64,000 bases of DNA from a virus (IMGVR_UViG_2061766007_000342:193909-257908), one strand, 5' to 3'. Positions 25,178-46,944 are shown, numbered from the stretch's first letter. A program made the numbers and translations. Notes: a model not told the origin generated them from the letters alone.

Positions 25178-25205
25178 ATATAATTATTCAAAATAAAAAT
25201 ATTTT
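25178..25205 (-). promoter_or_regulatory. 28-bp motif, identical to 44887-44914; candidate phage RNAP promoter
   Basis: + strand ATATAATTATTCAAAATAAAAATATTTT occurs identically upstream of two minus-strand gene blocks. Confidence 0.6.
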
Positions 25206-28763: not shown

Positions 28764-31736
28764 TCAAGGACGAGTATTTCCATAATAGTAGTAATCCGGG
28801 TTTACGTTATTTTTTGGAATGATCAACATGTATGTGGAAGTCGATTTGTTATAAACCAAATTACCAACAATCACATCAGTATTGGACATTGATGGAAGTG
28901 CAGTCTTTGTGATACGATTGCCATCATCAAACCAAATATCATATCCCATCGATTTCATATGCTGATATGTTGACTTGATGCGGAAGATTGCTTCATCGTA
29001 TATGAATGGAACAACATTCTCTTTGACACCATAACGGAGCTTCATATGTGATGCGTCATGTATCTTCAATACATCACGTGGAATCAAATGATATCGAAGA
29101 CGAGTAATCTCGTCATACAAATGCAACATATTCGATTCACCGCCATTATCAAATGGACCACCAAAGATATATGTGAATTCATCCTTGGTAAATTCTACCA
29201 TATATGATTTGAAGTAAGAAATCACTTCTTTCAAGATATCAATGTATTCTTGTGCACCCAATGTGTACATCTGTAATGCGATAAGTTTGGAATTTGTGTA
29301 TGCTTCCAAAGCACGAATGATGGATTTGATCAATACCACAATTGAATCCATGTTGGATTTCATTGACATCAATCCGCGATACAATACTGGGTTAGATCGA
29401 AGTAACAATGCTTCATATGTGCGTGGACCATAATCCGTATTCGACAAATCCAATGATACTTTGTCTTTGATGATGGATTGGTATTGATTACGGAATACAG
29501 CATTCAATGCAATAGCATTATCAATGTTGGAATCATGCCATGTATCCATAACCGCATTAAACTTATCAACGAATGCAGAATCTGTGGTGAATGGATACTG
29601 TGTTAATGACTTAACATCCGATGTCATTAACTCATATGGTGAAATCGCATATGTGGTTCCATTATATGGAACATTAATGGTGTTTTCATCTTGGAATAAG
29701 AAATACTTGAATGATTCGTATTCCTCTGCGGAGAACCCATAATTGGATATGAGGATTTCATCGGTTGATATCTCCATCGATTCAAACCATTTCAGATTCA
29801 ATGGATCCGTTAAGAAGATATGATGATACGCTGTATCTACTTGACGGAATTCGTGAATCGTCATTGCATTGAATAACTTGTCTCGTAAGTATTTATACAC
29901 TGCTTTGACTTCATGCATCATGGTTTCACCAATATTAGCTGTTGTGCGATTGTAAATGCTTTCCAACATTGGTACGAATACATCGGGATCCAGGTATGAT
30001 TGATAGGGAAGTGATTTGTAATACTTTGGATCAGTATTTGGTAAATCAAAATTAAATGCAGATACAAGATACGGTAATCCGGGAATCGTATCGTGTGGAT
30101 CTTGATCTGGATTTGCGGAAGTACCAATGAACAACATATCCAAACATGATGGTTTACCATCATACATACCATTTGGAGATTGTATCATAGATTGGAAATG
30201 ATTACCTCGGAAGTCAACATGCTTCCAATCCATTGCAACCAATAATACAGTAACTGCATCGAAGATGGACATTCGTTGAATACCATTGATATTATGATCC
30301 AAATGAAGCATAATCGCTTTGGTTTCTTCACGATTATCCAATAAACCACGCAACAAGATGGATGTCTGCCACCATATGTCATCCATTGACATATATGTTG
30401 ACAATTGGATGTATTTGGAATTGGACAAGGTATAATTCATCGTTTGGATCATTTCTTCTACTTCGGGAGTATTCCACCAACGTGGATCTCCGGAAGTGAT
30501 TTCATCCAACGTATATGTCTTAGATGAATCACGGAATTTGAAATACGAGGTATTATCTTCAGCGGTACCAAATCGACGGAATACGATCTCTTGTTGTGGT
30601 TTACGTACACCATGTTCATCCGTGTAATAAACTGGTTTACCATTCTTGAATGCTTGTTGTTTCACCATGATAAGTGTATAGATATCTGTGTATTCATATC
30701 CAATGATATCCTTAACACGATAAACGGTATTGGTTCCTTTGTCCATTAACAACAACCGGAACTTCTTGAGAAATTCCACCATGGAATCTGTATTGTCCAT
30801 AATGACGGATGGTAAACCATATAGCATGAAGTAATCATTCATGATGGATGGATTCATGTAAATCAACGTGGATGAACGTTTCATACATTCGTTCAACACA
30901 TTACCAATGGTCATGTAAATGGTTAAGAATCGAATGAACGAATTGTAATTCGCATAGATCATTTCGAAATTACCACGCAATGTGAAATACACATAATCAT
31001 GAACCTTTTCGTATGTGGTGGTATACAAATGAACGAGATCTGACGAAACGGATACATCACCAAATGTTTGATGATATACGTGAAGCTTCGATGTGTTAAT
31101 CAATAAGATATCACCATCATGTGCGGGTCTGGATATCTCCAATGGTATGGAATAACTACCGAGATGTTTTAAGTATTCCACATCAGGATATTGTCGCAAT
31201 AACAATGGATAGTAGTCGGAATTTAAAAACAACTCCATATATTTATCGGGTAAAGTATGGACATATGCATCTGGACCAAATGCATATGTATTTTTATACA
31301 ACTCATAAAATCCCGATGGAACGGAGATTAATGGATCTGCATCGACTGTGGCGGAACCGTCAAATGGTAATCCCATTAAGTTTACATAATACTTATTGGG
31401 TTCTTTGTACTGATTGATGAACTCTTGACGTTTATGATTAAGAATTACTTTCAATGCTTGTGTGGGAATGATGGATGGGGTGTCCAACATTCGTTGAATT
31501 TCATGTGGATTGAATCCCAATTCGTTTAACATCGATGCTAATTCGACGGGATCCCATTCATATGATTCAAACATATCCGTACCAAGCTTTGCACGAACGT
31601 ATGCATCACCGTTTAATTTAGACTCAACGGTTTCGTATTTGTTTGCGATTTCTTTATTCTTGAATTCTGTATTGGAAACCAATAACTGAATCTTGAATAA
31701 ATATTCCGACATAACATGGTTGTTACCATTTCTCAT
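28764..31736 (-). CDS. Large virion structural protein (baseplate wedge-like)
   Basis: 990 aa. E-x-N-x-YY motif and LLMDKGT motif seen in wedge-type proteins. Confidence 0.45.
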   Translation of the reverse strand: MRNGNNHVMSEYLFKIQLLVSNTEFKNKEIANKYETVESKLNGDAYVRAKLGTDMFESYEWDPVELASMLNELGFNPHEIQRMLDTPSIIPTQALKVILNHKRQEFINQYKEPNKYYVNLMGLPFDGSATVDADPLISVPSGFYELYKNTYAFGPDAYVHTLPDKYMELFLNSDYYPLLLRQYPDVEYLKHLGSYSIPLEISRPAHDGDILLINTSKLHVYHQTFGDVSVSSDLVHLYTTTYEKVHDYVYFTLRGNFEMIYANYNSFIRFLTIYMTIGNVLNECMKRSSTLIYMNPSIMNDYFMLYGLPSVIMDNTDSMVEFLKKFRLLLMDKGTNTVYRVKDIIGYEYTDIYTLIMVKQQAFKNGKPVYYTDEHGVRKPQQEIVFRRFGTAEDNTSYFKFRDSSKTYTLDEITSGDPRWWNTPEVEEMIQTMNYTLSNSKYIQLSTYMSMDDIWWQTSILLRGLLDNREETKAIMLHLDHNINGIQRMSIFDAVTVLLVAMDWKHVDFRGNHFQSMIQSPNGMYDGKPSCLDMLFIGTSANPDQDPHDTIPGLPYLVSAFNFDLPNTDPKYYKSLPYQSYLDPDVFVPMLESIYNRTTANIGETMMHEVKAVYKYLRDKLFNAMTIHEFRQVDTAYHHIFLTDPLNLKWFESMEISTDEILISNYGFSAEEYESFKYFLFQDENTINVPYNGTTYAISPYELMTSDVKSLTQYPFTTDSAFVDKFNAVMDTWHDSNIDNAIALNAVFRNQYQSIIKDKVSLDLSNTDYGPRTYEALLLRSNPVLYRGLMSMKSNMDSIVVLIKSIIRALEAYTNSKLIALQMYTLGAQEYIDILKEVISYFKSYMVEFTKDEFTYIFGGPFDNGGESNMLHLYDEITRLRYHLIPRDVLKIHDASHMKLRYGVKENVVPFIYDEAIFRIKSTYQHMKSMGYDIWFDDGNRITKTALPSMSNTDVIVGNLVYNKSTSTYMLIIPKNNVNPDYYYYGNTRP

Positions 31737-32746: not shown

Positions 32747-33400
32747 TTAATCTAAATACTCATATTCATCTGATGGTTTCACGTCATCATCCAATTCCAA
32801 CCAACACATGAAATTCCAAATGGCTGAAATGTGATGTGGCTCATCGGTTTCATCATTCAGCCATTGACAGAAGTGTCGAAATCCGGAATCTTCAAAACTG
32901 TTCTGCGGGATACCCTTTCGCCAATTGTTTTCACCGTATTTATCGGCTCCCTTTTCGAAATGGATTGCCAAGTCTTTCAACATCTGGATGACAGCTCTCC
33001 ACAAGTAAGCATACACAATCGGCTGGTTGATAGCCGGATAATTCTTATATGCCGAACCAACTTCTTCTGTTGTTACATACTTCGCATATGCAATCAACAA
33101 GATTGCAACCTCGAAGTTACGATTGGCAACTGCTGTCACCATATCTGAAACATTGCATTCTGCGAACGGTTCAACTTCAAAATCACGAAGCTTATCCATG
33201 ACACGAATTAATGCAATGGACGGAATCAGATCAAATCTTCCTTTACCAGTTTTGGTATATCTGATACCACCACCTTCGAACTGACGATATTCACCGTCCA
33301 TCTTGATGTTATAATCTTTCTTATCATCATCGGTTGAAGGCAGTGTATCAATTGATACACCGCCGATCTTTACCTCAACATTATTTGTCATTTCCGCCAT
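32747..33400 (-). CDS. dATP/dGTP diphosphohydrolase-family protein (DUF5664-like)
   Basis: GKGRFDLIP...GADKYGENNWRKGI...RH...EPHHISAIWN, with an insertion of about 80 aa inside the domain. Confidence 0.75.
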   Translation of the reverse strand: MAEMTNNVEVKIGGVSIDTLPSTDDDKKDYNIKMDGEYRQFEGGGIRYTKTGKGRFDLIPSIALIRVMDKLRDFEVEPFAECNVSDMVTAVANRNFEVAILLIAYAKYVTTEEVGSAYKNYPAINQPIVYAYLWRAVIQMLKDLAIHFEKGADKYGENNWRKGIPQNSFEDSGFRHFCQWLNDETDEPHHISAIWNFMCWLELDDDVKPSDEYEYLD

Positions 33401-34655
33401 TGTAATCATCCTCCTGAACTTGTTCGGTTGCTACCGTTTCGATTGCTTTTACTTCTTCATTCTTCTGATCTTCGGAAGTATCTTCATCTTCTTCTTCATC
33501 ATCAGATTCCTCTTCGTCATCGTCATCATTCAGACACTTGACATAATCATCATCGTCATGTTTGATGGCTTCACGTTCATCATGCATCATCTGTTCGAGG
33601 ATTGTTAAGAAATGTCCCATCATCCATGCAGGTTCATCTGTGAATGCTAAATACAGAATCATTGCCGGATTCAGTACATCAGGATCTTCGCGATCAAAAC
33701 TATCCATCATTCCTTCGTATACTCTACGAGGAACATTCCATACGAACTGTTTGAACTGTTCACCAGAGAACGGAATGTCGCTGAAGTATTTCTCATTCAG
33801 ATACATGATATAGTTCATGACTTCGGAAGCTTCTTTCTCCGTCAGAAGAGTCTTCACCTCTGCAGTTGATGAAGCAATCTCTGTTCTGATTTGCTGAAGC
33901 ATCTCATACAGTGCCATATTCTTAATGTCATCAGCTTCTTGTTCATCATACTTCGAAAGCTGACGATGGAGCTCTTCAATCTCAAATGCTTTTGCACCAC
34001 AATCCGTCTTCAACTCGTCAAGCTCTTCCTTTAAAGTTTGATTCTGTTTGTTCAATTCTTCATTGGTTGTATGAGCAATCAATAACTCAGAACTCAGTTC
34101 CTTGATTCTAGCATTCAACTCTTCAACCTTGTCGCGATAATACGTCACATTGGATTCAGCAATACTCTTTTCCAAATCGGAGCACTTCTGCGTGAGCTTT
34201 GTATAAGCCTCAATGTGAGGCTGAATGATTTCATTGATTTTATTCTCATTGGATGAAATCGTGTGAGTTAACTTTTCATTGTCCGTTCTCAATGTTGCAA
34301 TTTCACTGTTTAAACGAACAATCTCTTTCTCGTTCTGTTTACACTGAGACTCCCATGAAGAATCAGGAACCTTATTGGTTAATGCTTCCGCAATAGAGAG
34401 CTGTTTACGTAATGACTCGTTCTCACGCATTAAATCTTCGATGTCTTTTGTCAAATGATTCGATGCTTTATCATCTTCCGGATTATGATTGACATTGATC
34501 TTATCCCACAGCTCAGTATTCTCATTTGTCAAATTCTGAATACGGATATGGAGCGTCTCAATCTCTTTATCCTTCCCAGCAATGACGTCGGTGCTTACAA
34601 TGGTCGGGGATTGACCATTCATGTCAATCCCTTTCAGATAATTTGATGCATGCAT
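33381..34655 (-). CDS. Long coiled-coil protein with an acidic C-terminal tail
   Basis: Heptad-rich region of about 250 aa and a DDDDEEESDDEEEDED tail. Start reassigned to 34655. Confidence 0.65.
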   Translation of the reverse strand: MHASNYLKGIDMNGQSPTIVSTDVIAGKDKEIETLHIRIQNLTNENTELWDKINVNHNPEDDKASNHLTKDIEDLMRENESLRKQLSIAEALTNKVPDSSWESQCKQNEKEIVRLNSEIATLRTDNEKLTHTISSNENKINEIIQPHIEAYTKLTQKCSDLEKSIAESNVTYYRDKVEELNARIKELSSELLIAHTTNEELNKQNQTLKEELDELKTDCGAKAFEIEELHRQLSKYDEQEADDIKNMALYEMLQQIRTEIASSTAEVKTLLTEKEASEVMNYIMYLNEKYFSDIPFSGEQFKQFVWNVPRRVYEGMMDSFDREDPDVLNPAMILYLAFTDEPAWMMGHFLTILEQMMHDEREAIKHDDDDYVKCLNDDDDEEESDDEEEDEDTSEDQKNEEVKAIETVATEQVQEDDYNGGNDK

Positions 34656-34677
34656 AATAACACTTCCTTCTTTATTT

Positions 34678-35532
34678 TTATACAAGACTACTGAATGGAA
34701 CAATCGAATTTCGATTCAGTATCATGTTGGCAACATTCATAGATGTCTTATACGGATCCGGAGCATCTGGATTGTTTCTGGATACTTCCATCGGATCAAT
34801 ATCTACTTCCATTGTGACAGTTGGTTCTGTCAAATGAACTCCTTCGATGGTATTGAACAACCGAAGTCGATCCTGCTGAGTAATCGTTGAACGCAATGAT
34901 GAATCCGGATACACCGCATTACAAGATTGACAACGATATTCTGAGAATGTAGAATTCATTACCATTGTTTTGCATCCACATGTCAAACAATGAAACAGAT
35001 CCATTGACACAGGAAAGATATATGCATAATCGATACATACAGCTTTTCCTTGTGAATTAACACCCCAATTAGCATAGTTCTTATCAACGATACCAACATC
35101 TCCAATCAAGAATCGTTGACACCAATTAGACAAGATCTGTGAAATGGAATCTCTTCTAAGCATCATCTCTGAATATGATGAGAATGCTGGTGCATATTCT
35201 GCCACAAGTAAATGTCCGCCATCTGAGATTTCAAATGTGGATGCAACATGTGGTGCCAATTGATCTGACATGACCCATTCTTGGCGATTATCTGCAATGC
35301 CTTCTTTATCCAACGCGATCTTGATTACATATCCATCATACTTCACAATGTGACGATTGGTTCCAGTACCAATGGATCTGTATTCAATATTATATTTGGA
35401 AAATAACTCATTGATTTTATCACGTCTGGACGTTGGAAGCATTCCCTTTTGTAATGAGACTTCTCCAAGTTCATCACGTAACTCATGTGGAAGCATCAAC
35501 AATCTTGAACGATATGTCACTGTTTGCTTCAT
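34678..35532 (-). CDS. Protein kinase-like enzyme with a C-terminal Zn ribbon
   Basis: Gly-loop IGTGTNR, VIKIA Lys, NRQE helix-C Glu, catalytic D(VGIVDKNYA)N, IDYA (DFG-equivalent), and CLTC...CQSC. Confidence 0.8.
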   Translation of the reverse strand: MKQTVTYRSRLLMLPHELRDELGEVSLQKGMLPTSRRDKINELFSKYNIEYRSIGTGTNRHIVKYDGYVIKIALDKEGIADNRQEWVMSDQLAPHVASTFEISDGGHLLVAEYAPAFSSYSEMMLRRDSISQILSNWCQRFLIGDVGIVDKNYANWGVNSQGKAVCIDYAYIFPVSMDLFHCLTCGCKTMVMNSTFSEYRCQSCNAVYPDSSLRSTITQQDRLRLFNTIEGVHLTEPTVTMEVDIDPMEVSRNNPDAPDPYKTSMNVANMILNRNSIVPFSSLV

Positions 35533-35571
35533 GTTATCACTTCCATTCTACATTAAAAATGAATTATAATG

Positions 35572-35597
35572 ATCACGGGGCGATGATGCCCCGTGAT
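35572..35597. terminator. GC hairpin
   Basis: ATCACGGGGC-gatgat-GCCCCGTGAT. Confidence 0.55.
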
Positions 35598-35610
35598 ACA
35601 TTGTTATGGT

Positions 35611-36369
35611 TTACTTGTTGGGGAAGTTCTGTTTTGCAATACTCTCCCATGAAGTATCAGGTGTCACTGACGGTACAGCCGGAGGTGCGGGTGTCGGATA
35701 TACCGGACCTGATGCTTGCTGAGGATTCGGAATGTACTGCGTCCAATTCGCAACCGGAAGCTGGGACGGATTGGGCTGTGTATACGTATTTTCCCACTGC
35801 TGTGTCTTACGGGTAATCGGAGTGACATTGCACTGAGTATACATCGCAGAACAATCCATGGTCGGTACAGTATTGGGAAACTGGTTCTGTACAAACGGAT
35901 TGGGTGTGGAGTATGCAGGTGCAGACGGTGTTGTCTGTGTCCACGGAGATGTAGACTGAGGTGCATTCGGATCAAATCTACGAGAATCTGTCTGTACATT
36001 CATACCAAACGGATTCGTCGGAGCCTGATACTCCGGGGGATAACTACTGAACGGCTGAATGTTCTGTTCAACCGGTACAGAAATCGGAGATGTGGGATAC
36101 TGCTGATACTGGGGCTGCTGGGGCATGGAACAACCATTGTTCTTGGCATACAATGCCTGGAATGCAGCCATCTGATCATTCCAATTGTTCGGCTGTGCGG
36201 GCTGAGTCGGATTCATCATCGGTTCATTACGACGAGAATCCTGCTGGAATGTACCAGGCATGGAACCCATTCCACCATAATAGAACGTGTTGTTCTGGAA
36301 CTGGGGCTGCGGCTGATACGTGTGCGACAGGAAGCTTCCTGTGTTGGTTGGGTAGTCCGGATTAATCAT
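35611..36369 (-). CDS. Pro/Gln/Asn/aromatic-rich intrinsically disordered protein
   Basis: RBS AAGGAGG. Low complexity, few charged residues, two DSRR motifs. Confidence 0.75.
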   Translation of the reverse strand: MINPDYPTNTGSFLSHTYQPQPQFQNNTFYYGGMGSMPGTFQQDSRRNEPMMNPTQPAQPNNWNDQMAAFQALYAKNNGCSMPQQPQYQQYPTSPISVPVEQNIQPFSSYPPEYQAPTNPFGMNVQTDSRRFDPNAPQSTSPWTQTTPSAPAYSTPNPFVQNQFPNTVPTMDCSAMYTQCNVTPITRKTQQWENTYTQPNPSQLPVANWTQYIPNPQQASGPVYPTPAPPAVPSVTPDTSWESIAKQNFPNK

Positions 36370-36399
36370 AACGGTTTCCTCCTTAAATGAATTTTTGTA

Positions 36400-37032
36400 T
36401 CAATGATACATATTCGCGATCAGATGACTCAACAGCATCAAGTCTTTCTGAACTTCATTGATGGGTTTCATACCGAAATTCCATCTGGTGCGATAACACA
36501 TGTAATTATCATTGATACGTGTAATATGACCACACCGGTATGGTGTGTTCATCGGATTTACAATACACTGTGCATACTCATTCGGAATGTACAGTGTTGT
36601 CAGCATGTTCTCCGTTTCCATCGGTGTGCATCTACCGGATACATTCACCTCATATGTTCCTGTGAGAACAATGCCGCACTGCTCAAGTTTCTGCAGTACA
36701 CCCATCAGAAACATAAGCTGTTTTGTTGTCTGGGAACAAGGTACAGGTGCAGTCATTACCCAAAGACCTGTTTTATCAGGTACTTCTTCAATCGCTGCTT
36801 CACGAACCATGCAACCTGTCCCAGGCAGGATCTGCATCAAGAAGCGATCAATTGCTTCCAGACGAAGACGCGGATGCTGTGTTGTTGCTGCACGATCTTT
36901 CACCATTACCTTGAAACCGACAAACGGTTCACGCTGAACTGCTTCCGGCGGATATGCTTGCATAACCATACCGGAGTAGTCGATGATTTGGTGAGGACCG
37001 AGTACGCAACTCTGGTAAGCTTCAATACTCAT
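36400..37032 (-). CDS. Hypothetical protein, possibly a degenerate amidoligase (COOH-NH2 ligase) fold
   Basis: Motif order resembles amidoligases but the catalytic residues are substituted. RBS AGGAGG. Confidence 0.35.
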   Translation of the reverse strand: MSIEAYQSCVLGPHQIIDYSGMVMQAYPPEAVQREPFVGFKVMVKDRAATTQHPRLRLEAIDRFLMQILPGTGCMVREAAIEEVPDKTGLWVMTAPVPCSQTTKQLMFLMGVLQKLEQCGIVLTGTYEVNVSGRCTPMETENMLTTLYIPNEYAQCIVNPMNTPYRCGHITRINDNYMCYRTRWNFGMKPINEVQKDLMLLSHLIANMYH

Positions 37033-37111
37033 AACGAAACCTCCTATGAAAATTTGGAGACAGTAACACTTAGTGTGACCATCTCACCGGAATTATATGT
37101 ATATAAAATGA

Positions 37112-38605
37112 TTAAATATTTGCCACAAAGTTTTGCATTTGTTTACCGAAGAAGATTGGTTGTGACAATGTCGTTGTCTCCATGATATCCGGTTGTAATG
37201 CAAACGAGTCTTGTGAATAGAAAGGTTGACGGATTGCTGTAATATCAGATCCCTCTTTCTCGACATCACGACGCTTTGCGGCTTTGAGCATCAGATCTTT
37301 TTGGTCACCTGATTGTTCGATATTGACAATCCCTAAGAAGTCAGCAACTTCCAAGACTTCAATTGCGGAACCAATCTGTGAACGACCCAATACTTCAGCT
37401 GATTTGTTATAACCACCATGAGCAACAGCTTGATCAACTACTTGTGCAGCCATACGATTCAACTGATGACCGGTGACAACGGGAATGTTGAACTGTATCG
37501 CCATTGTCTTGAACTCATTCATGATGGCGTTCAATTCTCCCTTTTCAGAAGCTCGTGCAACTTCATCCCGAGAAGCCGGACGAATTCGCTTTAAATAATC
37601 GAAAAATAAAGCAACAACTTCCGTTGTTTCCGTATTGAACGCTCGAATGATATTTGCAATATCGGCAGTTGACTTTTCGCGATATCCATAATACAACAAT
37701 ACCGAACGGAATCCTTTGGATGTTAACTTCTCATTGATCATGTCTACAATCTCATCGACTGTATAGGAAGCCATATCTGCCATTGGATATAACAATGACC
37801 ACAACCGTCGAACGGTTTGTGCCATGGAGTTTTCCATGGAAATGTAAATGGATATAGGTTGTTTACCATTCAATGTGTTCTTGATATGTTCATTATACAG
37901 ACACGTATCCACATGTCCTTGAAGTAACATACCCGATTTGTAATTACCAGGCAAACCTGCCCATACATAAACACATCCAGACAAATATCCCGGAGACAAT
38001 AACATGTTCACACCTTTGAAAGATGTAATGATACATTTGTCTGCAGAACGAGCATCTTTTGTTTGTGCAACAACTGTTTTCATTCCTTCGATATTATCTG
38101 AATCGAATTGATGTGATACAGCTGCAATATTGGACACGTTATATGCTTCAACCATCTTGGTTGAGATTTGATAAATGGCATTAACCGTTTCTTTGACCGG
38201 TGCATCTTCATCGTCAAGTAAATCCATTGCTTTGATGAACGATTTCTTATTCTTCAATAACTTTGCATACTTGACATAATCCGAAAGCAATAGACAAAGC
38301 TCAGTTAATTCTGATTGTGTTTTAATTGTGGGATTGTCATGGAAGTATTTTACATTCTTAACAATCTCAGAATCTTCTCCCTCTTCATCCATTGAATTCA
38401 TGATCAATGTATAAGAACGAATATCTCGTTCGAAGTATGCGAGAATACGATGTGCCGTTTGATAATAGATGGATTTTGTTGACGGGTATTCGGATAATGC
38501 ACGTGAAAACAACACAAAGTTTTGTGCGGTTTTATATTCGTCATGCGATGATACCATCACCGATATAATGTCTTTGTAAAATGATGACCTCAATTGACAT
38601 CCCAT
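37112..38605 (-). CDS. dnaB: Replicative DnaB-like helicase
   Basis: Walker A GLPGNYKS, YISMEN, DYLKRI, GHQLNR, ADF. Start reassigned to ATG 38605 behind AAAGGGGG. Confidence 0.85.
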   Translation of the reverse strand: MGCQLRSSFYKDIISVMVSSHDEYKTAQNFVLFSRALSEYPSTKSIYYQTAHRILAYFERDIRSYTLIMNSMDEEGEDSEIVKNVKYFHDNPTIKTQSELTELCLLLSDYVKYAKLLKNKKSFIKAMDLLDDEDAPVKETVNAIYQISTKMVEAYNVSNIAAVSHQFDSDNIEGMKTVVAQTKDARSADKCIITSFKGVNMLLSPGYLSGCVYVWAGLPGNYKSGMLLQGHVDTCLYNEHIKNTLNGKQPISIYISMENSMAQTVRRLWSLLYPMADMASYTVDEIVDMINEKLTSKGFRSVLLYYGYREKSTADIANIIRAFNTETTEVVALFFDYLKRIRPASRDEVARASEKGELNAIMNEFKTMAIQFNIPVVTGHQLNRMAAQVVDQAVAHGGYNKSAEVLGRSQIGSAIEVLEVADFLGIVNIEQSGDQKDLMLKAAKRRDVEKEGSDITAIRQPFYSQDSFALQPDIMETTTLSQPIFFGKQMQNFVANI

Positions 38606-38670
38606 TGGTTTAGCCCCCTTTGGTGAAAATGAAAAGTGACGTATCATTTCGTTACAAATCGTCATGATTT

Positions 38671-38698
38671 TAAGTGGCGGGATATATCCCGCCACTTA
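38671..38698. terminator. Perfect 28-bp palindrome after the chaperonin gene
   Basis: TAAGTGGCGGGATATATCCCGCCACTTA. Confidence 0.55.
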
Positions 38699-38706
38699 TA
38701 TTATCA

Positions 38707-40479
38707 TTACATATTATCGTCACGAACGAAATGTCCCTGGTCACCCTGGGGTTGCATCAAGAATGCATCGAATACCAATGCACGAGATGTCAATAGATAT
38801 TTTACAATCGACAATGTTGCAACCAATACTTCCAAATCATATTGTGCAGATGTCGGAAGCTGTGTACATGGTACCAAATCATCAGTAATAATATCGAATG
38901 CATATTCCGGTGTTTCAACCGTATAGAATTCGGACATTAACTCATGAAGCTGTTGTTCCTTGGTGTTTCCATGTTTGGACTTCCAAATATCACGACACAG
39001 ATCTTCAATGGACAGCTGAATGGCATCACATACATCTTGTGTGAACTTTGAAAGTGGTGACACATGATCGGATGCATTTTGATGAATACGTGAGATACGT
39101 TCATCACCATACCACAGCATGTTTGGTACAACACCGTAGTTGCATGCAGATTTGACAATGGATACACAGTCATCAATCTTATCCGTGATCATCTTCAGTT
39201 CCAGATTTGTACCTGCTTTCACACGTACAAGTGTATCCTTCTGATCCAATGACAATGCAACGATACGATCATTGATGACAGTTTGACGAACATATGATGT
39301 TTCATTATCACGTTCAATCTTGAGCTTGTTGATGTAATCCGTTGGTGGAGTTGCGTTGTTAATGCACAAGCAATTGTAATTGTGAACTTGGACATTGAAC
39401 GTGGGAATGTTATTGTAATCCACCTCAAGATGATGAATATCATGAAGTGGTACATTCAATATCGCAGCCAAGTCATGCAGTTCATCCTGGACGTAACGAC
39501 CCTTGATCTCTGCCAAATAGATCCGTACAGGACGCTTTGTCAGCTGTGTGGATTTCAAGTAACGTGTGTACTCATTATCCATGAACTGCACATGGAAAGA
39601 TCGTGCAATCAGCAACACAAGTTCTTCTGCTTCTTTATCATATGCATGATTGTAGAAATTTTCCCACTCGGAAGCATTGAACGTGTGATCATACATTACA
39701 ATCTTAAGATTTGTTGGCTTTTCCAATGCCAATGCGAAATCGACATCCATGTTGATACGCGCACGATAATCACCCGGAAGAGGTGTAACTTCATAATTCG
39801 CATTGGATACCGATTCATATGTCGATGAAGAATCTACAATGACATTACGTACAGATGTGACAACATCGTTTTCATCAGTTTCGGGCATCAATGCTTCCAT
39901 CAGCATATCCACCAGCTTCATGTCATAATTGGATGCGACACGGATAATGTTTCGCAATGCAGTACGTGTCATCGGTAAAATCATACCCGTTTCCATATCA
40001 CGTTTGATTGCCAATGACTCTTGAAGCTCCAACTCGATATTGTCAAGCACTTCTTTCAAGTGACGCTTATTATCGGGATTATCCATTAGCGGAAGCATTT
40101 TGTTGAATACCTTTTCCGCCAATAGAATGCATGATGTCGTTCCATCACCAACCGTACGATTGACACGTTCAATAATGTTTTGAATTGCCATGTAAACCAT
40201 ACGCTTATATTGGTGATTGAACCCCAATGAATTGTAAATGTTATAACCGTCTTTGGTAGTAGTGGTTTCACCATTCTGTGAGGTCAACATCATGGTGGAT
40301 CCATATGGTCCATATGTGTTCCGAAGTACATCTGCAACAGTACCAAACGTATCACTTGTGAGACGTTGAAATGCTTCTTCGGGAATCACGTTGATGTGGT
40401 TCTCATGTGAATATTGTGTATAATCATACACACGTTTGAAACCGGCCACTTCCATTTCAGTATCCGATAAACCCGGCAT
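38707..40479 (-). CDS. groEL: Phage GroEL-like chaperonin
   Basis: TYGPYG, TTKDG, GDGTTS, KAGTNLELK...IDD, GVVP. Confidence 0.88.
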   Translation of the reverse strand: MPGLSDTEMEVAGFKRVYDYTQYSHENHINVIPEEAFQRLTSDTFGTVADVLRNTYGPYGSTMMLTSQNGETTTTKDGYNIYNSLGFNHQYKRMVYMAIQNIIERVNRTVGDGTTSCILLAEKVFNKMLPLMDNPDNKRHLKEVLDNIELELQESLAIKRDMETGMILPMTRTALRNIIRVASNYDMKLVDMLMEALMPETDENDVVTSVRNVIVDSSSTYESVSNANYEVTPLPGDYRARINMDVDFALALEKPTNLKIVMYDHTFNASEWENFYNHAYDKEAEELVLLIARSFHVQFMDNEYTRYLKSTQLTKRPVRIYLAEIKGRYVQDELHDLAAILNVPLHDIHHLEVDYNNIPTFNVQVHNYNCLCINNATPPTDYINKLKIERDNETSYVRQTVINDRIVALSLDQKDTLVRVKAGTNLELKMITDKIDDCVSIVKSACNYGVVPNMLWYGDERISRIHQNASDHVSPLSKFTQDVCDAIQLSIEDLCRDIWKSKHGNTKEQQLHELMSEFYTVETPEYAFDIITDDLVPCTQLPTSAQYDLEVLVATLSIVKYLLTSRALVFDAFLMQPQGDQGHFVRDDNM

Positions 40480-40482
40480 GGT

Positions 40483-41148
40483 TTATACCTCCTTTGATGA
40501 CGACGCTCTCGGCCGTTGATGTATCATCTTAAATTCATATATCGCTTTACCGTTCGGGAATCGTTTATTCAAAGAACGATGGGATCGTATGATATCAACT
40601 CCGCTTGTGATGCGGAACATGTCATACTGCACAGCCGTCAACAGTTTCAACATCGTGCTTGTCAACGCATCATGTTGTTTGTCAATTGCTCGACAGATAT
40701 TGTCCAGCTGTGTATCCATGTTTTGGAATTTAGTTTCAAAGTCATCATCGCATTCTTCATATTCATCCATAATGGGTTGCACTTGTTTACGTGCAAATGC
40801 CACTTGAGATTGTAAGAACTGATATCGAGATATCATTGCGTGATAACGTTTCAATTGCGATTCCATAACCCCGTTCAGATCCATCAATTTAATTGATGCA
40901 AACGGTCGAGAGAATTTATTATCTTCATACAACACTGTGAGTGTCTTGATAATTTGAATATTATATGCCAATTCATTGATATGTGACATGGTATCATAAT
41001 CATCTTCATGAATTGTTTCCATCGTATCTAATCCATCAGTTATGATTTCTATCAATGCATGAACAGTGTTGACAAATCGTTGTGCTTCTTGTTGGTCTTG
41101 TTTCTTAATTGATATGACATCCCAAAATAAAAACTTCATCGGAAGCAC
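40483..41148 (-). CDS. Hypothetical helical protein
   Basis: 221-aa ORF within the operon. Confidence 0.55.
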   Translation of the reverse strand: MLPMKFLFWDVISIKKQDQQEAQRFVNTVHALIEIITDGLDTMETIHEDDYDTMSHINELAYNIQIIKTLTVLYEDNKFSRPFASIKLMDLNGVMESQLKRYHAMISRYQFLQSQVAFARKQVQPIMDEYEECDDDFETKFQNMDTQLDNICRAIDKQHDALTSTMLKLLTAVQYDMFRITSGVDIIRSHRSLNKRFPNGKAIYEFKMIHQRPRASSSKEV

Positions 41149-41163
41149 CTCGCGTTTTCGTTG

Positions 41164-42282
41164 TTATTGTTTGATTTTGCATACAGTCAATGTGACAGAA
41201 TTCTTCATTAAAGAATACATCATGCGATTCGTTAAAATGAATGCATCCGTTTGAACAAAGACCGTGTGATTGAATCGATGTAATGCCGTGGTATCAACAT
41301 CAATGATGTTTGCGGGCATTGCACGAATTTGATGTACATCACAACCATTGATTGCAAATACATTGGTTTCTGTGACATCTCGTTTCAATGTCAGATACAC
41401 CCATGTATTCGATTTAAAGATGCGGAATGGTTGACGGGTGTTGACATCATTCTGTTGTCCAGCAATGACAATATCACCTTCGGACAAATGATGTGATAAG
41501 TTGTTGTCATCCAAACCCATCATGATTCGTTTATCCGTGATGACGAACTTTTGGTTCTTACGAATGGGATTCATGGTTTGTTTAGAACGAATGATGTCGA
41601 TCAAAATGGTGTCATCGGTCACATACATTTGATTACCCAATGCACCAATGGAATTGCGACGGATCTTACCATGGTATACTCCACCCTTGGCAGATTTATT
41701 CAACATATCGGTTTCTACACCCCACACATGTCGGGCAGCACCGATAATTGTCGGGAGCTTATGGAAAGATCGGATGATAGTTGGTGTATCAACAAATACT
41801 TCACCGTGGATATCAAATGGATCAACAACAACGACAACTTTTCCATGAAAGTATTGCAGTATTGCATCACGAAAAATATGATCCATTAGGTGTGCATTAT
41901 GTAATACAATGACATCATACATTTTTAAGTATGCAGCATTCAAATAACGTAATGCGGGACGATTGACGGTGGGACGTTTCAATGAAAATGGATCAAATGT
42001 AAACACATCAGAATCCGTTTTATCCACCATCAAGTTACGATAATAGATATGATTCACCATTGCATGTTCGGGTTTCTTCATGTATACAATGTCGGGACAA
42101 CCATCTGCAATCAATACTTTGTCAAATGACGTATATGCAGTTGTTGCATCCAACACTGTACGAAGTAATGGTGAACCACAGATACCACCAACGGTGATAT
42201 GTGTATCATTATTGTTGAAAAAATCAATCAAGGCGTTTAACATGACATCTACTTCAACAATATTCGTTGGACGATCAAACAT
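41164..42282 (-). CDS. Degenerate RecD/Dda-like SF1 helicase (probable pseudo-ATPase)
   Basis: ITVGGICGS (Walker A lacking GKT), VVVVDPFD (motif III-like), and C-terminal HRFNHTVFV and MMYSLMKNS (motif V/VI-like). Confidence 0.45.
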   Translation of the reverse strand: MFDRPTNIVEVDVMLNALIDFFNNNDTHITVGGICGSPLLRTVLDATTAYTSFDKVLIADGCPDIVYMKKPEHAMVNHIYYRNLMVDKTDSDVFTFDPFSLKRPTVNRPALRYLNAAYLKMYDVIVLHNAHLMDHIFRDAILQYFHGKVVVVVDPFDIHGEVFVDTPTIIRSFHKLPTIIGAARHVWGVETDMLNKSAKGGVYHGKIRRNSIGALGNQMYVTDDTILIDIIRSKQTMNPIRKNQKFVITDKRIMMGLDDNNLSHHLSEGDIVIAGQQNDVNTRQPFRIFKSNTWVYLTLKRDVTETNVFAINGCDVHQIRAMPANIIDVDTTALHRFNHTVFVQTDAFILTNRMMYSLMKNSVTLTVCKIKQ

Positions 42283-42313
42283 GTAAAATCACTCCGTTCA
42301 TATGAAATGAATA

Positions 42314-42343
42314 TATTCCGCGGGGATTTAACCCCGCGGAATA
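42314..42343. terminator. GC hairpin
   Basis: TATTCCGCGGGG-atttaa-CCCCGCGGAATA. Confidence 0.6.
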
Positions 42344-42354
42344 CACATTGCGGA

Positions 42355-43005
42355 TTACTTCATTGCGAAGATCTGATCGATCGACAGATCCGTGCCGATG
42401 ACATTATTGACATTGGAGATCTGTTCAACAAGCCAACGGAAATCGGAAGACGTCTCGCCAGTTACACGACGGATGTAGATATCACCATCCGGCTTACCAG
42501 TGCGAGGATCAGACAGCATCTCGGAGATGATTCTCTCAGGACGCAGATATACACGGAAATACTGACGACCATTCTCGGGTGAAGTTGCCAACGTCAGCTG
42601 TGCATTTCTGATGAGTTCGTCCAGCTTTGGACCGATAACACCGAGAGAGTTCAGATGACGTGCAGCTTCCGGAGTCAGCTGCTCGTAAGAGAAGTTCTTC
42701 GGATACATGAACGGCTCGAGCGCTTTCACAACGTCCTTGTCGAGTTCGTAACCGGTCTGGTTCTGCTGGAGAATGCGAGTTGCATAATCATCGGAAGCAA
42801 CATTGTTGTTGACAATCAGATCCTTGGCCTGGATGACAACACGCATACGTACATAAGAATGTGCAGCGTTGATACCAGTCCAACGTGTGAAGTCAGCATC
42901 GATGCGGAATCCGAGAACATCGTTCTCCAGATAGTGCATAATATCTCCAGCAGAGATATTATAGAACTTATTGCCGATCGGTTCGATATTTCCTTTGTTT
43001 GCCAT
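42355..43005 (-). CDS. Hypothetical protein, probably abundant
   Basis: RBS AAGGAGG and strongly biased codons. Confidence 0.7.
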   Translation of the reverse strand: MANKGNIEPIGNKFYNISAGDIMHYLENDVLGFRIDADFTRWTGINAAHSYVRMRVVIQAKDLIVNNNVASDDYATRILQQNQTGYELDKDVVKALEPFMYPKNFSYEQLTPEAARHLNSLGVIGPKLDELIRNAQLTLATSPENGRQYFRVYLRPERIISEMLSDPRTGKPDGDIYIRRVTGETSSDFRWLVEQISNVNNVIGTDLSIDQIFAMK

Positions 43006-43026
43006 GGCGGTTTCCTCCTTTGTGAA

Positions 43027-43401
43027 TTAAGAGATGTAATTTTGTACCAGAATGTAGACTGTCAATACTTTAATTATGGATTGACGATCAACATCCAAGT
43101 CATTGAATGGAATATCATACAGATATCGAGATAATGCATACGGGATACCATCATCGATATCATATCCATATTGGGATTCCAAGATCTCATTGATACGATT
43201 CATATCATTGAAACAAGCTTCAATGTATGTGATATGGATCTTGTCAAGTCGATTCATCTTGGGTTTTAAGGCATTCACCAGTGTGGTGATGTCATTCTCC
43301 AGATTGAACGGGATCTCGACCACGTTCGGATCATCCGGAGTTGTAATCGACAACACATTGTTTGTTGCCAGCTTTTTACAAAATTCCATAAATCCAGCCA
43401 T
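43027..43401 (-). CDS. Hypothetical protein
   Basis: 124-aa ORF coupled to the upstream gene. Confidence 0.6.
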   Translation of the reverse strand: MAGFMEFCKKLATNNVLSITTPDDPNVVEIPFNLENDITTLVNALKPKMNRLDKIHITYIEACFNDMNRINEILESQYGYDIDDGIPYALSRYLYDIPFNDLDVDRQSIIKVLTVYILVQNYIS

Positions 43402-43403
43402 GA

Positions 43404-43796
43404 TTAATACGACCCCATTCCATAAGACGGATTCCAGAAACCATCCATCGGGTGATCATACATCGATGAAATTCCCGACTGATAAGATCCAAATCCGAAT
43501 GAAGAGTAGTTTGAATTTGTACCATAACCATATCCGTACTGGACGGGTGCGGGCTGTGGTGTGGGATTATTACCATAACCATACTGGTTGGGATTCCATG
43601 ACGGAATACCACCGGTATTACGACGAGATGAAGTATCAACCGGAGCGATGGCATCGGAGATACGATTGACTGCTTGGGCGGAACGTTCGAACATGTTAGC
43701 AACACCATCGAACATACTGGGTGCACAATCAAACAGACGATCCATTTGGGCGGTCGTCATTCCCATGTCTTTTTCGTTCATAATGAAAACCTCCAT
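43404..43796 (-). CDS. Tyr/Gly/Ser-rich prion-like low-complexity protein (start probably MNEKD)
   Basis: QYGYGN, QYGYGYG, SYGMGSY and an SSRRN motif. GGAGG precedes the second Met. Confidence 0.7.
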   Translation of the reverse strand: MEVFIMNEKDMGMTTAQMDRLFDCAPSMFDGVANMFERSAQAVNRISDAIAPVDTSSRRNTGGIPSWNPNQYGYGNNPTPQPAPVQYGYGYGTNSNYSSFGFGSYQSGISSMYDHPMDGFWNPSYGMGSY

Positions 43797-43861
43797 TGTT
43801 TTGATATATGATGAACGGATTGCGTAATCAATAGTTCACACAATCCGTTGAATCATTTTGT

Positions 43862-44548
43862 TTACACATTACCATATGCGCATGTTGTTTCCACAACACG
43901 GGATGGGTCGGAACGCGGTACGAATACTTCAGAATGTACATGGGCGAAACATCGATTCAGTACATCATGAAGCTGGTTGCATTCTTCCATGGTCATATGA
44001 TGTACGGGTTCATATGTCGGTTGAAACTGGGCGGAGTTACAACCATATGCCGATTGATTGGGCATATATCCATATGCATTATTCATCACCGGTGTTGTGA
44101 ACATTGCGGGCGTTGCATAATTGTTCATATTCATCGGGATGACCGGATCATTACACGGTGGATAGATCGGATCAATACGATTGATATTGGGATAAATCAT
44201 CGTGTGATTCATCGGTGGGATCATCGGATTGTTTACCGGACGCATCGATACAACAGCCGGAGCACCAAATGTACACGGAGCACCACCCCATGTCCAATTT
44301 TCCGCATATGTTACATTGTTCGGATGTACGGGAACGGTCGGTGCCGGAACCATGCCATGTGCAGCGTTATACACATCCGCATGAGACGGTGCATTTGTGG
44401 TCATCATCATGCCACCACCACATCCACCCCCACAACCATTTTCTTCGGCATTGTTACGCTTTTTGATGTTCATAACAACAGCAACTACAATACCAGCAAT
44501 TGCTGCCAGTCCCATCACGGCATAACCAAACATTGAGATCGGATCCAT
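43862..44548 (-). CDS. N-terminally membrane-anchored Pro/Met/Asn-rich low-complexity protein
   Basis: Transmembrane segment at about residues 7-27, then KKR, GCGGGCGGGMMM and a P/M/N/Y-rich tail. RBS GGAGGTG. Confidence 0.7.
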   Translation of the reverse strand: MDPISMFGYAVMGLAAIAGIVVAVVMNIKKRNNAEENGCGGGCGGGMMMTTNAPSHADVYNAAHGMVPAPTVPVHPNNVTYAENWTWGGAPCTFGAPAVVSMRPVNNPMIPPMNHTMIYPNINRIDPIYPPCNDPVIPMNMNNYATPAMFTTPVMNNAYGYMPNQSAYGCNSAQFQPTYEPVHHMTMEECNQLHDVLNRCFAHVHSEVFVPRSDPSRVVETTCAYGNV

Positions 44549-44886: not shown

Positions 44887-44914
44887 ATATAATTATTCAA
44901 AATAAAAATATTTT
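44887..44914 (-). promoter_or_regulatory. 28-bp motif, identical to 25178-25205; candidate promoter
   Basis: Exact repeat upstream of the low-complexity-protein block. Confidence 0.6.
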
Positions 44915-44970
44915 AAAAACCGACGGGTAAACCCCGTCGGTTTATGATATCATATAAGGAGTTGAAACAT

Positions 44971-46944
44971 ATGGCAGTATTTTTACCGGGGTATGGTCAA
45001 TTAAAAAGTGACAAAGAATCTTTTTTGACCAGTAACCCGATTAATTCCAATTATTCGCCACGGTTGTTTGGTGCACCACCACAATTAACCAGTTTGTGTG
45101 ATATGCGCACATTGTCATCCAAGAATGGACAACCGGGCGCAGTTGGTGATATGTATTTGAATAACATTTTAAAGAATGCACAAGTTGCCAACTTTTCCGT
45201 TGGTCGTGCATTGTTCACCGGTGGTTTCAATTCATTGGTTGCCATTGGTATGAATTTAGCGGCATATGCATATGCGTACAAGCATTATGGCATATCCGGT
45301 AAAAATCAAGAAACCGTTACTGCATCAAATGTATCCGATGACGCATTACATGATTTGACCGTCGCATTTAATGAACGTGCATTGGAATCCACATCATCAA
45401 CAACCACCGGCAATACCGTCACCGAAGATGACATCCAAGCCCAACAAGAATTGGATGCATTGATGAATGGTACCAATACCGAATCACAATATTCCACCAA
45501 TGGTTCATGGGTATCCATCATGGAAGAATTTGCGGAACGAACCACCGATTTAGTCAGTGACGAAATGAACAATGTCGATGAATCCACCGAAGAAGTGACA
45601 CCGTCCACAACCTATTCTGGTTTGGACGATATCTCCGCGGCATTGGGTGGAACATATAACAATTTATCCAATACCGGTTTGGAAGATGATGAATCATTGT
45701 CAATTGATATCGACAGTTTAGACTCCATCGTTGCCATCCTTGAGAACTTGGCTTCGGGTTTTAGTAATACAATACGTGAAACCGGAGCCACATTATCCGC
45801 ATCATTGTTAACCGGTTTATTGGTCAATCAACCATTTTACACATTTGAAGCCGATTGGAAGACGTACATCAACAATGTCAAAATGATGATCAACACCGCC
45901 GTTATTATGTTGGGTTTACAAAATGCATATGTCAGAATCGGTAATCAATACATGTGTGTTGGCAAATCGGCAACGTATACCGGTGGTGATGATGTTTGGA
46001 CGTTGTATCGATATATCACACCCGATGATGATATTGGTACACATACATCAATTGACAACATCAAGGGTGAATCTTCACAATATGTTTCATTTATGATTGA
46101 TCCATCGGGTGAATCGGAATCCTACACCAACACAACTTCTCCATCACAAATATATTCATCCGTCATCAATTCCGGTTCCGATATTGGTTCCGAAATTGCA
46201 TTCATCACGAATTCATCACAATCCGCGATCGATGATTCGGTAATCCAATTGGCGGGTGGTGCGGTCGATACAGCGAATCGCATACTTGGTGCATTGTCGG
46301 GTGGTGTTGGTAAATTCACCGCCGCAATTGCCGCGGGCATGGCACGTACATATACGGGTGATCATGCCATTTATCCCGAGATCTTTAAAGAACATTCATC
46401 CACACAAACGTACACAGTTCATATCAAGTTACGTGCATCACGTGGCGATCCATACACGTATTTGATGGATATATTGGTACCGTTGTTCCATATCATGGCA
46501 ATGGCTTTGCCAAAAATGTCCAAGAACTCCGCAGCATCGTATCAATATCCACCATTGATCCAATGTAATGTACCGGGTATGTGGGGAACACGTTTGGGTA
46601 TTATTGAATCTTTGTCAATCCAAAAAGCCCCCAATGGTGAAATGTCCGTATATGGATATCCATTGTCAATCAATGTTGATGTCATCATTAAAGATTTAAT
46701 GCATGCAATGGTTACCACACCAATGGATGCACCCGCATTGTTTTTGAACAATACTCCCATGTTTGATTATATTGCACAATGTACCGGCGTTGATAAGTAC
46801 CGTGTCAATTCAGCAGCACGTATCATCACCAAGATCGCATTAGCAGCATCCTTTTCAGAATCCACATTTTATAATATCGGCGAAGCAATGACATCGGATC
46901 TCACACATATGTACAACTCCGCCGTATCCATTGCAATTAAATGA
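44971..46944 (+). CDS. Virion structural protein (tube-initiator / baseplate, T4 gp48/gp54-like C-terminal domain)
   Basis: YQYPPLIQC...LGIIESLSIQK...GYPLSINVDVIIKDL. Start reassigned to 44971 behind AAGGAG. Confidence 0.6.
   Translation: MAVFLPGYGQLKSDKESFLTSNPINSNYSPRLFGAPPQLTSLCDMRTLSSKNGQPGAVGDMYLNNILKNAQVANFSVGRALFTGGFNSLVAIGMNLAAYAYAYKHYGISGKNQETVTASNVSDDALHDLTVAFNERALESTSSTTTGNTVTEDDIQAQQELDALMNGTNTESQYSTNGSWVSIMEEFAERTTDLVSDEMNNVDESTEEVTPSTTYSGLDDISAALGGTYNNLSNTGLEDDESLSIDIDSLDSIVAILENLASGFSNTIRETGATLSASLLTGLLVNQPFYTFEADWKTYINNVKMMINTAVIMLGLQNAYVRIGNQYMCVGKSATYTGGDDVWTLYRYITPDDDIGTHTSIDNIKGESSQYVSFMIDPSGESESYTNTTSPSQIYSSVINSGSDIGSEIAFITNSSQSAIDDSVIQLAGGAVDTANRILGALSGGVGKFTAAIAAGMARTYTGDHAIYPEIFKEHSSTQTYTVHIKLRASRGDPYTYLMDILVPLFHIMAMALPKMSKNSAASYQYPPLIQCNVPGMWGTRLGIIESLSIQKAPNGEMSVYGYPLSINVDVIIKDLMHAMVTTPMDAPALFLNNTPMFDYIAQCTGVDKYRVNSAARIITKIALAASFSESTFYNIGEAMTSDLTHMYNSAVSIAIK

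Follow-up and report, generated by a model that had tools for sequence, protein, structure and literature searches.

Three low-complexity proteins, one of them membrane-anchored, are encoded by a real, conserved, linked and clade-specific set of genes in a jumbo phage. The window analysed in this study is a stretch of 64,000 nucleotides (IMGVR_UViG_2061766007_000342:193909-257908), which is the last 64 kb of a 257,908-bp IMG/VR virus record with an estimated completeness of 96%; positions below are those of the window. The proteins are called lc252, lc130 and lc228. A twin-arginine (RR) motif is kept at fixed alignment columns in the families of lc252 and lc130, and its losses and changes are coordinated among the low-complexity proteins of a genome. 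We speculate, at a rough probability of 35%, that the trio forms a multivalent membrane-tethered scaffold or hub with RR docking. The genes and motif sites are as follows (aa, amino acids; ORF, open reading frame).

35611..36369, minus strand: lc252, 252 aa, a low-complexity ORF with conserved islands between variable P/Q/N/T spacers and a strong Shine-Dalgarno sequence, AAGGAGG
36229..36240, minus strand: DSRR site 1 of lc252 (residues 44-47), covered by the alignment and shuffle tests
35977..35988, minus strand: DSRR site 2 of lc252 (residues 128-131), covered by the same tests
43404..43781, minus strand: lc130, 125 aa from the ATG preceded by a Shine-Dalgarno sequence (130-aa ORF from 43796), with a helical-looking N-terminal third, SSRRN and a Y/G/N/P-rich tail with QYGYGYG
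43620..43631, minus strand: SSRR site of lc130 (residues 56-59), with the equivalents DSRRN, FSRRN, ISRRD, NSRRN and (E/Q)PRR(A/Q) in homologues
43862..44548, minus strand: lc228, 228 aa, with an N-terminal transmembrane segment (residues ~7-27), KKRNN, GCGGGCGGG and a P/N/V/A/M/Y-rich tail, and a strong Shine-Dalgarno sequence, GGAGGTG

Composition and conservation of the low-complexity trio

An earlier reading of this DNA from the sequence alone (the sequence-only reading) had described three low-complexity ORFs with few charged residues, and their composition and motifs proved to be as described. lc252 is P/Q/N/Y/W-rich, with 8.3% charged and 11.9% aromatic residues, 16.7% proline and 22.6% glutamine plus asparagine, and it carries QDSRRN (residues 43-48) and TDSRRF (residues 127-132). 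The YGYG repeats of lc130 (QYGYG/QYGYGYG) and its TSSRRN are present in the ORF 43404-43796. The true start of lc130 is probably the ATG at 43781, because the ATGGAGG at the listed start is the lc130 Shine-Dalgarno sequence. A single hydrophobic segment was found in lc228 (Kyte-Doolittle value 2.46 over residues 10-28), in line with the claimed N-terminal anchor. It is followed by KKRNN and by a P/N/V/A/M-rich tail with 9.6% charged residues, which ends in a short conserved C-terminal module (...YGNV). Since lysine and arginine follow the only transmembrane segment, the tail should face the cytoplasm according to the positive-inside rule. The stretch GCGGGCGGG (residues 38-46, just after the transmembrane segment) gave a sub-threshold match to the FeoB-associated Cys-rich membrane proteins (PF12669, E 0.006); it is not present in the homologues from related phages.

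The composition of the proteins was compared with that of the 222 ORFs that rough gene calling gave for the full 258-kb genome. The charged fraction of lc252 was the fourth lowest and that of lc228 the fifth lowest, and the P/Q/N/G/S/Y share of lc252 was far above that of all other members of the set. FoldIndex was negative along nearly the entire length of lc252 and over the C-terminal two thirds of lc130, which predicts disorder there. The aromatic residues of lc252 are spaced more evenly than in shuffled sequences (gap variance 26.6 versus 54.6, P ~0.02-0.03), and 12 of its 15 homologues lean the same way, with values below 0.5; the effect in lc130 and lc228 was weaker and not significant. 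Members of the lc252 family keep 6-10% charged and 10-14% aromatic residues. The maximum number of glutamine plus asparagine per 80 residues was 24, 14 and 16 across the three proteins, and none reaches the usual cut-off for Q/N-rich (prion-like) proteins of 30 per 80 residues, so the earlier label "prion-like" is loose. Pfam and PHROGs gave no match at family level for any of the three, and a feature search of the ESM Atlas with lc252 gave no usable match.

A search of 5.8 billion proteins returned four homologues of lc252. The contigs of these homologues, together with IMG/VR loci found with lc252 and kinase alignments, made up a set of 13 related contigs; several span 200-295 kb, terminal repeats are present in one, and two have a completeness rating of 100%. 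The lc252 homologues (n = 15) share 31-58% identity with the window protein. Conserved islands are separated by indel-rich spacers in these sequences, the islands being NPDYPT..G.F..HTY, FYYNGMG, DSRRN, AAFQALYA, PFSSYPPEY, DSRRF, SPW, NPF, QQWENxYTQP, NW and SW..IA.QNF. Homologues of lc130 were found in 11 contigs (L003, L005-L008, L014, L018, L020-L023). The slot of lc228 holds a transmembrane-anchored low-complexity protein of 193-572 aa in the nine related contigs read there (L003, L005-L007, L014, L018, L020, L021, L023).

The order of the 16 genes was identical as far as each contig extends, and related jumbo phages thus keep it, in at least 13 contigs. The constant order begins with the transmembrane low-complexity protein, the small low-complexity protein, proteins of 124, 216, 372 and 221 aa, a chaperonin and DnaB. 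It continues with a 210-aa protein, lc252, the kinase, a coiled-coil protein with an acidic tail, a deoxynucleoside triphosphate (dNTP) diphosphohydrolase, and proteins of 301 and 990 aa.

Conservation and coordinated change of the twin-arginine motif

The tripeptide SRR occurs 11 times in the genome against 8.8 expected; it is not enriched, and its presence by itself is no proof. Its weight was therefore judged from homologues, where it was conserved; the sequence-only reading had named a lack of such conservation as a refutation, which did not come about. Both RR sites of lc252, in the form x-[S/A]-R-R, are kept in conserved columns in 14 of the 15 homologues. In this alignment R47 never varies, and the conservation of R46, R130 and R131 is at least 90%. 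Fourteen of the 15 members have exactly two RR pairs, which account for four of their 4-8 arginines; shuffles of each protein reached its number of RR pairs with P of 0.0000-0.023. In the lc130 family 10 of the 11 members have a single RR site, in the forms DSRRN, SSRRN, FSRRN, ISRRD, NSRRN, EPRRA and QPRRQ and an EVRRA variant, L005 being the exception. In the family of transmembrane proteins RR is sporadic: ESRRT was found in L006, APRRP in L007 and L008, and three SRR sites in L018.

Changes of the motif were coordinated within genomes. L005 no longer has RR in the small protein or at either lc252 site, and its three low-complexity proteins share PT(L/P)E(E/M)FNxMSxG instead. In L007, L008 and L014 alanine or proline precedes RR in every copy, while serine does so elsewhere. 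Modules are also shared between proteins: the transmembrane protein of L006 holds the lc252 modules QAAFDALYSKP and VVPFGTYPS together with the YGYGYGYADNANY repeats of the small family. Non-orthologous low-complexity proteins of the same genome aligned better than cross-genome pairs (permutation P 0.009, 0.07 and 0.015), as judged by local-alignment scores after removal of row and column effects. The shared modules and the concerted change indicate a common function or a common partner.

The sequence-only reading had proposed (D/S)SRR as a docking or phosphorylation site. Phosphorylation of the serine was rejected as the general role of the motif, as serine is replaced by alanine or proline in a subclade while RR is kept. 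Docking is the better reading of the two, and on the sequence data an RR site that serves as a docking motif for an acidic surface would be the most economical interpretation. A twin-arginine translocation (Tat) signal was also rejected. The sites are internal (residues 44-47 and 128-131 of lc252, 56-59 of lc130), repeated and set in a polar P/Q/N context with no hydrophobic h-region after them. They have the S-R-R-x core in common with the Tat motif S/T-R-R-x-F-L-K, and S-R-R-F occurs once; the likeness is only superficial. TSRRD in the neighbouring kinase-like protein (residues 34-38) is a different kind of site; the fold places it in a predicted helix, and across the family it is kept as an SRRRD-like sequence.

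The kinase-like protein and other neighbouring genes

The following features lie next to the low-complexity genes or had been connected with them.

34678..35532, minus strand: 284-aa protein-kinase-like protein with a C-terminal Cys4 zinc ribbon (C182, C185, C201, C204), directly downstream of lc252
33381..34655, minus strand: 424-aa protein with the start MHxSNYLKG, a coiled-coil-type middle of variable length, a conserved C-terminal domain of ~110 aa and a D/E tail
43027..43401, minus strand: 124-aa acidic protein with a start that touches or overlaps the lc130 stop, conserved at 28-67% identity
44887..44914, plus strand: copy of a 28-mer, 30 nt upstream of a plus-strand structural-protein gene at 44944 and followed by a GC hairpin (44920-44940)
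25178..25205, plus strand: copy of the 28-mer, 47 nt upstream of a plus-strand SbcC-like gene at 25252

From the structure model, its matches and the conserved residues described below, the 284-aa neighbour of lc252 is accepted as a protein with a protein-kinase-like fold. Its catalytic set is intact, its catalytic loop is elongated, and it carries a zinc ribbon. The AlphaFold2 (AF2) model from 150 sequences reached a predicted local distance difference test score (pLDDT) of 93 and a predicted template modelling score (pTM) of 0.84, and it superseded a model from seven sequences only (pLDDT 48.7). The 50 matches listed by Foldseek were all protein kinases (ROCK1, RIO2, PRPK, PKA, POMK); among these the best E was 4e-5, with probabilities of 0.99-1.0 but TM-scores of only 0.3-0.45. 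VIA alignment gave Z of 8-9 to CDKL1, RIO2, PRPK, POMK and ULK1, with a root-mean-square deviation of 2.8-4.5 over 126-162 residues in the model range ~5-209. K71, E85, D145, N152, N155, D168 and GTGTNR (55-60) are invariant in the 150 sequences of the family, as are the zinc-ribbon cysteines C182, C201 and C204; C185 is invariant among seven close homologues. The catalytic residues, which make up the Gly-rich loop, the beta3 Lys, the alphaC Glu, the catalytic Asp/Asn and the Mg-binding Asp, fall on the expected secondary-structure elements of the model, and the spacing from D to N is atypical. The protein matched no Pfam family at E <= 0.1 and matched only phrog_4301, and kinase profiles gave only noise against the PDB sequences. 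The Zn-ribbon kinase of the sequence-only reading is thus supported at the level of the fold and the cysteine cluster.

RIO2 and PRPK/Bud32 resemble this protein in their compact bilobal kinase fold, which lacks a long activation segment (Z 8.6-8.9 over 143-153 aligned residues, 12-17% identity), and in the canonical Lys-Glu-Asp-Asn-Asp order. It differs from them in its catalytic loop (D145-x6-N152-x2-N155), an extra N-terminal helical part and the C-terminal zinc ribbon.

When 1.84 billion representatives were searched with a profile of the kinase, 1,195 relatives scored E <= 1e-3, of which 237 reached E <= 1e-30. Many of them measure 850-1,200 aa and carry an N-terminal kinase domain before long acidic regions, and none of ten scanned members passed a curated Pfam cut-off. 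No low-complexity ORF was found near the four distant loci inspected (L011, L024-L026). The adjacency of lc252 and the kinase is therefore a single inherited, clade-specific arrangement and not repeated evidence of a functional pair, and the pairing drawn in the sequence-only reading was not upheld. One of these distant members lies on a 112-kb contig (L011), where it adjoins an S80 (phiKZ-type) prohead protease.

The protein after the kinase is, as had been described, a long coiled-coil protein with an acidic tail; it has a coiled-coil-type composition and a net charge of -54. Its start was re-set to 34655, the most likely position, since MHxSNYLKG is conserved there. The C-terminal part of the ~900-aa kinase fusions was considered as a possible counterpart of this protein and rejected, as hmmsearch and hhalign found nothing (probability 0.4%). 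The dATP/dGTP diphosphohydrolase downstream of the block has 220 aa here versus ~380-410 aa in some relatives (L007 12517-13695, L019 6945-, L021 11456-), which have an extra fused domain.

At the other end of the block, the genes of lc130 and the 124-aa protein abut or overlap in the window phage, L003, L005 and L006, and this junction suggests translational coupling. The 124-, 216-, 372- and 210-aa neighbours had no Pfam or PHROG match. In L003 (4154-5263) two ORFs, of 99 and 248 aa, make up the homologue of the 372-aa protein; the split may reflect a frameshift, an insertion or an assembly error. The DnaB homologue of L006 (7251-9237) is split into pieces of 439 and 82 aa with ~420 nt between them, which may be an intron or another insertion.

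The exact 28-mer ATATAATTATTCAAAATAAAAATATTTT had been read as a motif shared by the low-complexity block and the tubulin-containing block. The repeat itself is exact and occurs only twice in the genome, both times in plus orientation, and the minus-strand blocks are 339 nt away from the copy at 44887 and 85 nt away from that at 25178. Its orientation and placement provide no tie between the two blocks; the copies are more likely signals of the plus-strand genes at 44944 and 25252. The hairpin ccgacggg-taaa-ccccgtcgg followed by TTT (44915-44943) covers the would-be ribosome-binding site of the 44944 gene and may act in translational control or, for the opposite direction, as a terminator. The tubulin homologue (23246-24325) scored 29.5-31.2 bits, below the Pfam Tubulin cut-off of 33, and it also touches Tubulin_2.

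The absence of a recognisable chimallin gene, claimed for the window, extended to the 96%-complete genome: none was found with PF25677, phrog_4795 or phiKZ gp54, and a highly divergent form could escape these searches. The nuclear-shell family phrog_4795 was also negative in three relatives and in AR9, with phiKZ as positive control (1.8e-232).

The window also encodes a split multisubunit RNA polymerase (Rpb2 domain 6 match), an SbcC-like protein, a Cpn60-like chaperonin, a divergent DnaB and a dCMP deaminase. The replication and chaperonin genes (the divergent DnaB and the Cpn60-like gene) belong to the co-directional block of the low-complexity genes. On its flanks (28764-31736 and 44944-46944) this block has genes that weakly match PHROG families of virion structural proteins. 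The named phages nearest by DnaB were Listeria phage LPJP1, Bacillus phages AR9 and PBS1 and large Staphylococcus phages, at just 24-30% identity. Synteny with AR9 was rejected, as the gene order around the AR9 DnaB differs from that of the module. Strong GGAGG ribosome-binding sites would fit a Gram-positive host. Megablast of the block against 50,697 phage records gave no DNA-level match to cultured phages, and tblastn of the kinase, lc252, lc130 and a 917-aa kinase fusion gave no match among the same records. The module is thus unknown in those records, and no paper on it was found in a literature search. An 826-aa SF2 helicase ORF (12331-14811) contains a LAGLIDADG domain (residues 332-384) between the helicase motifs, consistent with an intein.

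Possible function of the trio and comparison with known systems

We infer the scaffold from clade-specific, linked and probably largely disordered proteins. In the proposed mechanism, one protein would sit in the cytoplasmic membrane with its low-complexity tail inside the cytoplasm, and the other two would be soluble. The three share interchangeable modules, namely x-[S/A/P]-R-R, (Q)YGYGYG, and islands of the AAFxALY and PFxxYPP types. The twin-arginine site may dock one common putative receptor, folded or acidic and encoded by the phage or the host, and the evenly spaced aromatics in nearly uncharged P/Q/N spacers may act as weak self-association stickers. Docking and stickers together would produce a multivalent membrane-tethered assembly during infection by a chimallin-less, AR9-related jumbo phage. 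The adjacent kinase may act on the trio, and this is the weakest link of the mechanism.

Several observations weigh against such a scaffold. The lc228 protein of the window phage has no RR, and its tail has positive FoldIndex values, so that an unfolded state is not predicted for it; this is a further point on which the label "prion-like" is loose. Apart from composition and SRR, the three proteins of the window phage have little in common (same-genome scores 38-49), and genome-specific composition could partly lie behind the same-genome similarity. The genomes are related, so the changes of the motif amount to only about two independent events. Synteny in one clade is inherited and is not proof of functional coupling. 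The 124-aa acidic protein, a candidate receptor for RR, is unchanged in L005, which lost the motif.

This last point bears on another explanation, that the proteins are independent effectors of host takeover or anti-defence. The motifs of each would then bind, block or re-route a host protein (of division, the envelope, a protease or defence), and no phage assembly would be involved. Motif mimics are typically built in this way, from short conserved motifs set between variable spacers, the family is confined to one clade with presumably a common host range, and a host receptor would fit the finding that no phage-encoded receptor visibly co-varies with the motif loss in L005. However, the three proteins share and exchange modules per genome and one is membrane-anchored, which suggests joint action, and no target can be named; we regard independent effectors as possible but rather unlikely. 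At the other extreme, the proteins could be three unrelated orphan low-complexity ORFs without a joint function, with SRR present by chance. The genome-wide count of SRR is what chance would give, and the post-hoc choice of a tripeptide shared by three proteins is weak evidence alone. This explanation is nevertheless contradicted by the RR columns kept across 15 and 11 homologues, the coordinated losses and switches and the shuffle test of lc252, and it can hardly be sustained.

The proteins might also belong to the virion, as scaffold, inner-body or ejection proteins with RR as a processing or targeting signal. The structural genes that flank the block would suit such a role, and in the phiKZ/AR9 lineage of jumbo phages the virion contains numerous processed internal proteins. 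However, the S80 prohead protease of phiKZ type cuts after glutamate in S/A/G-x-E and not at RR, and SRR shows no enrichment among the genome's large structural proteins, so the reading of RR as a processing site is not favoured. The same co-directional block holds replication and chaperonin genes, and a membrane anchor would be unusual in a capsid-internal protein; a virion role is improbable on this evidence. The sequence-only reading went further than a scaffold and proposed a kinase-regulated, tubulin-positioned and membrane-tethered condensate as the replication compartment, with the serine of (D/S)SRR as the phosphosite. It shares all the support of the scaffold, and the kinase fold with its intact catalytic set, the tubulin homologue and the lack of chimallin agree with it. 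Against it stand the serine replacements in L007, L008 and L014 with RR kept, a kinase family found mostly in other architectures, and 28-mers that face plus-strand genes, and we think this full form very unlikely.

The membrane-tethered scaffold with RR docking was compared with known disordered systems, and the trio differs in grammar and architecture from all of them. The sticker-spacer domains of FUS and hnRNPA1 resemble the phage proteins in their very low charge, 10-14% aromatic residues spaced more evenly than by chance, polar spacers, YG-type repeats and, in lc252 and the lc130 tail, predicted disorder. In contrast to these domains, the phage spacers are P/Q/N/T-rich rather than G/S-rich, and there is no RNA-binding domain or RGG region. 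Unlike typical prion-like domains, the phage proteins carry many strictly conserved islands and stay below the Q/N cut-off. Viral-factory scaffolds of Nucleocytoviricota are likewise virus-encoded disordered proteins proposed to organise the replication site; they were identified by sequence grammar and not by homology, this grammar being that of charge-patterned disordered regions (PMC12415211). With respect to the grammar described there, the lc252 family is only 6-10% charged, belongs to a bacterial virus, has one membrane-anchored partner and is known here from sequence. SPO1 Gp27 (PMC13401047) and ChmC of Chimalliviridae (PMC11077065) are phage proteins with disordered regions that form condensates in vitro, and ChmC uses an Asn-rich C-terminal region for this (PMC11077065). 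Both differ from the trio in having folded nucleic-acid- or RNAP-binding domains and in depending on electrostatics or RNA (PMC13401047, PMC11077065). No sequence relation of the trio to Gp27 or ChmC was found, and the trio has no recognisable folded domain or nucleic-acid-binding part.

The kinase-plus-zinc-ribbon family, with more than 1,000 metagenomic proteins and no Pfam model, merits description independently of the role of the trio. Three small genes, a four-residue motif and one kinase also provide a concrete target for experiments. A conserved, uncharged and aromatic-rich trio with one membrane-anchored member and a co-varying motif would represent a different grammar from that of Gp27 and ChmC. 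On how replication is organised in jumbo phages without the chimallin shell, a 2026 review goes no further than to call the formation of a protein nucleus unlikely (PMC13282480). It is a long shot that the chimallin-less, AR9-related clade organises infection around a membrane-tethered condensate of nearly uncharged disordered proteins with aromatic stickers, which recruit clients or one another via twin-arginine docking. If true, the condensate would be a second, shell-free way in which giant phages compartmentalise the bacterial cytoplasm.

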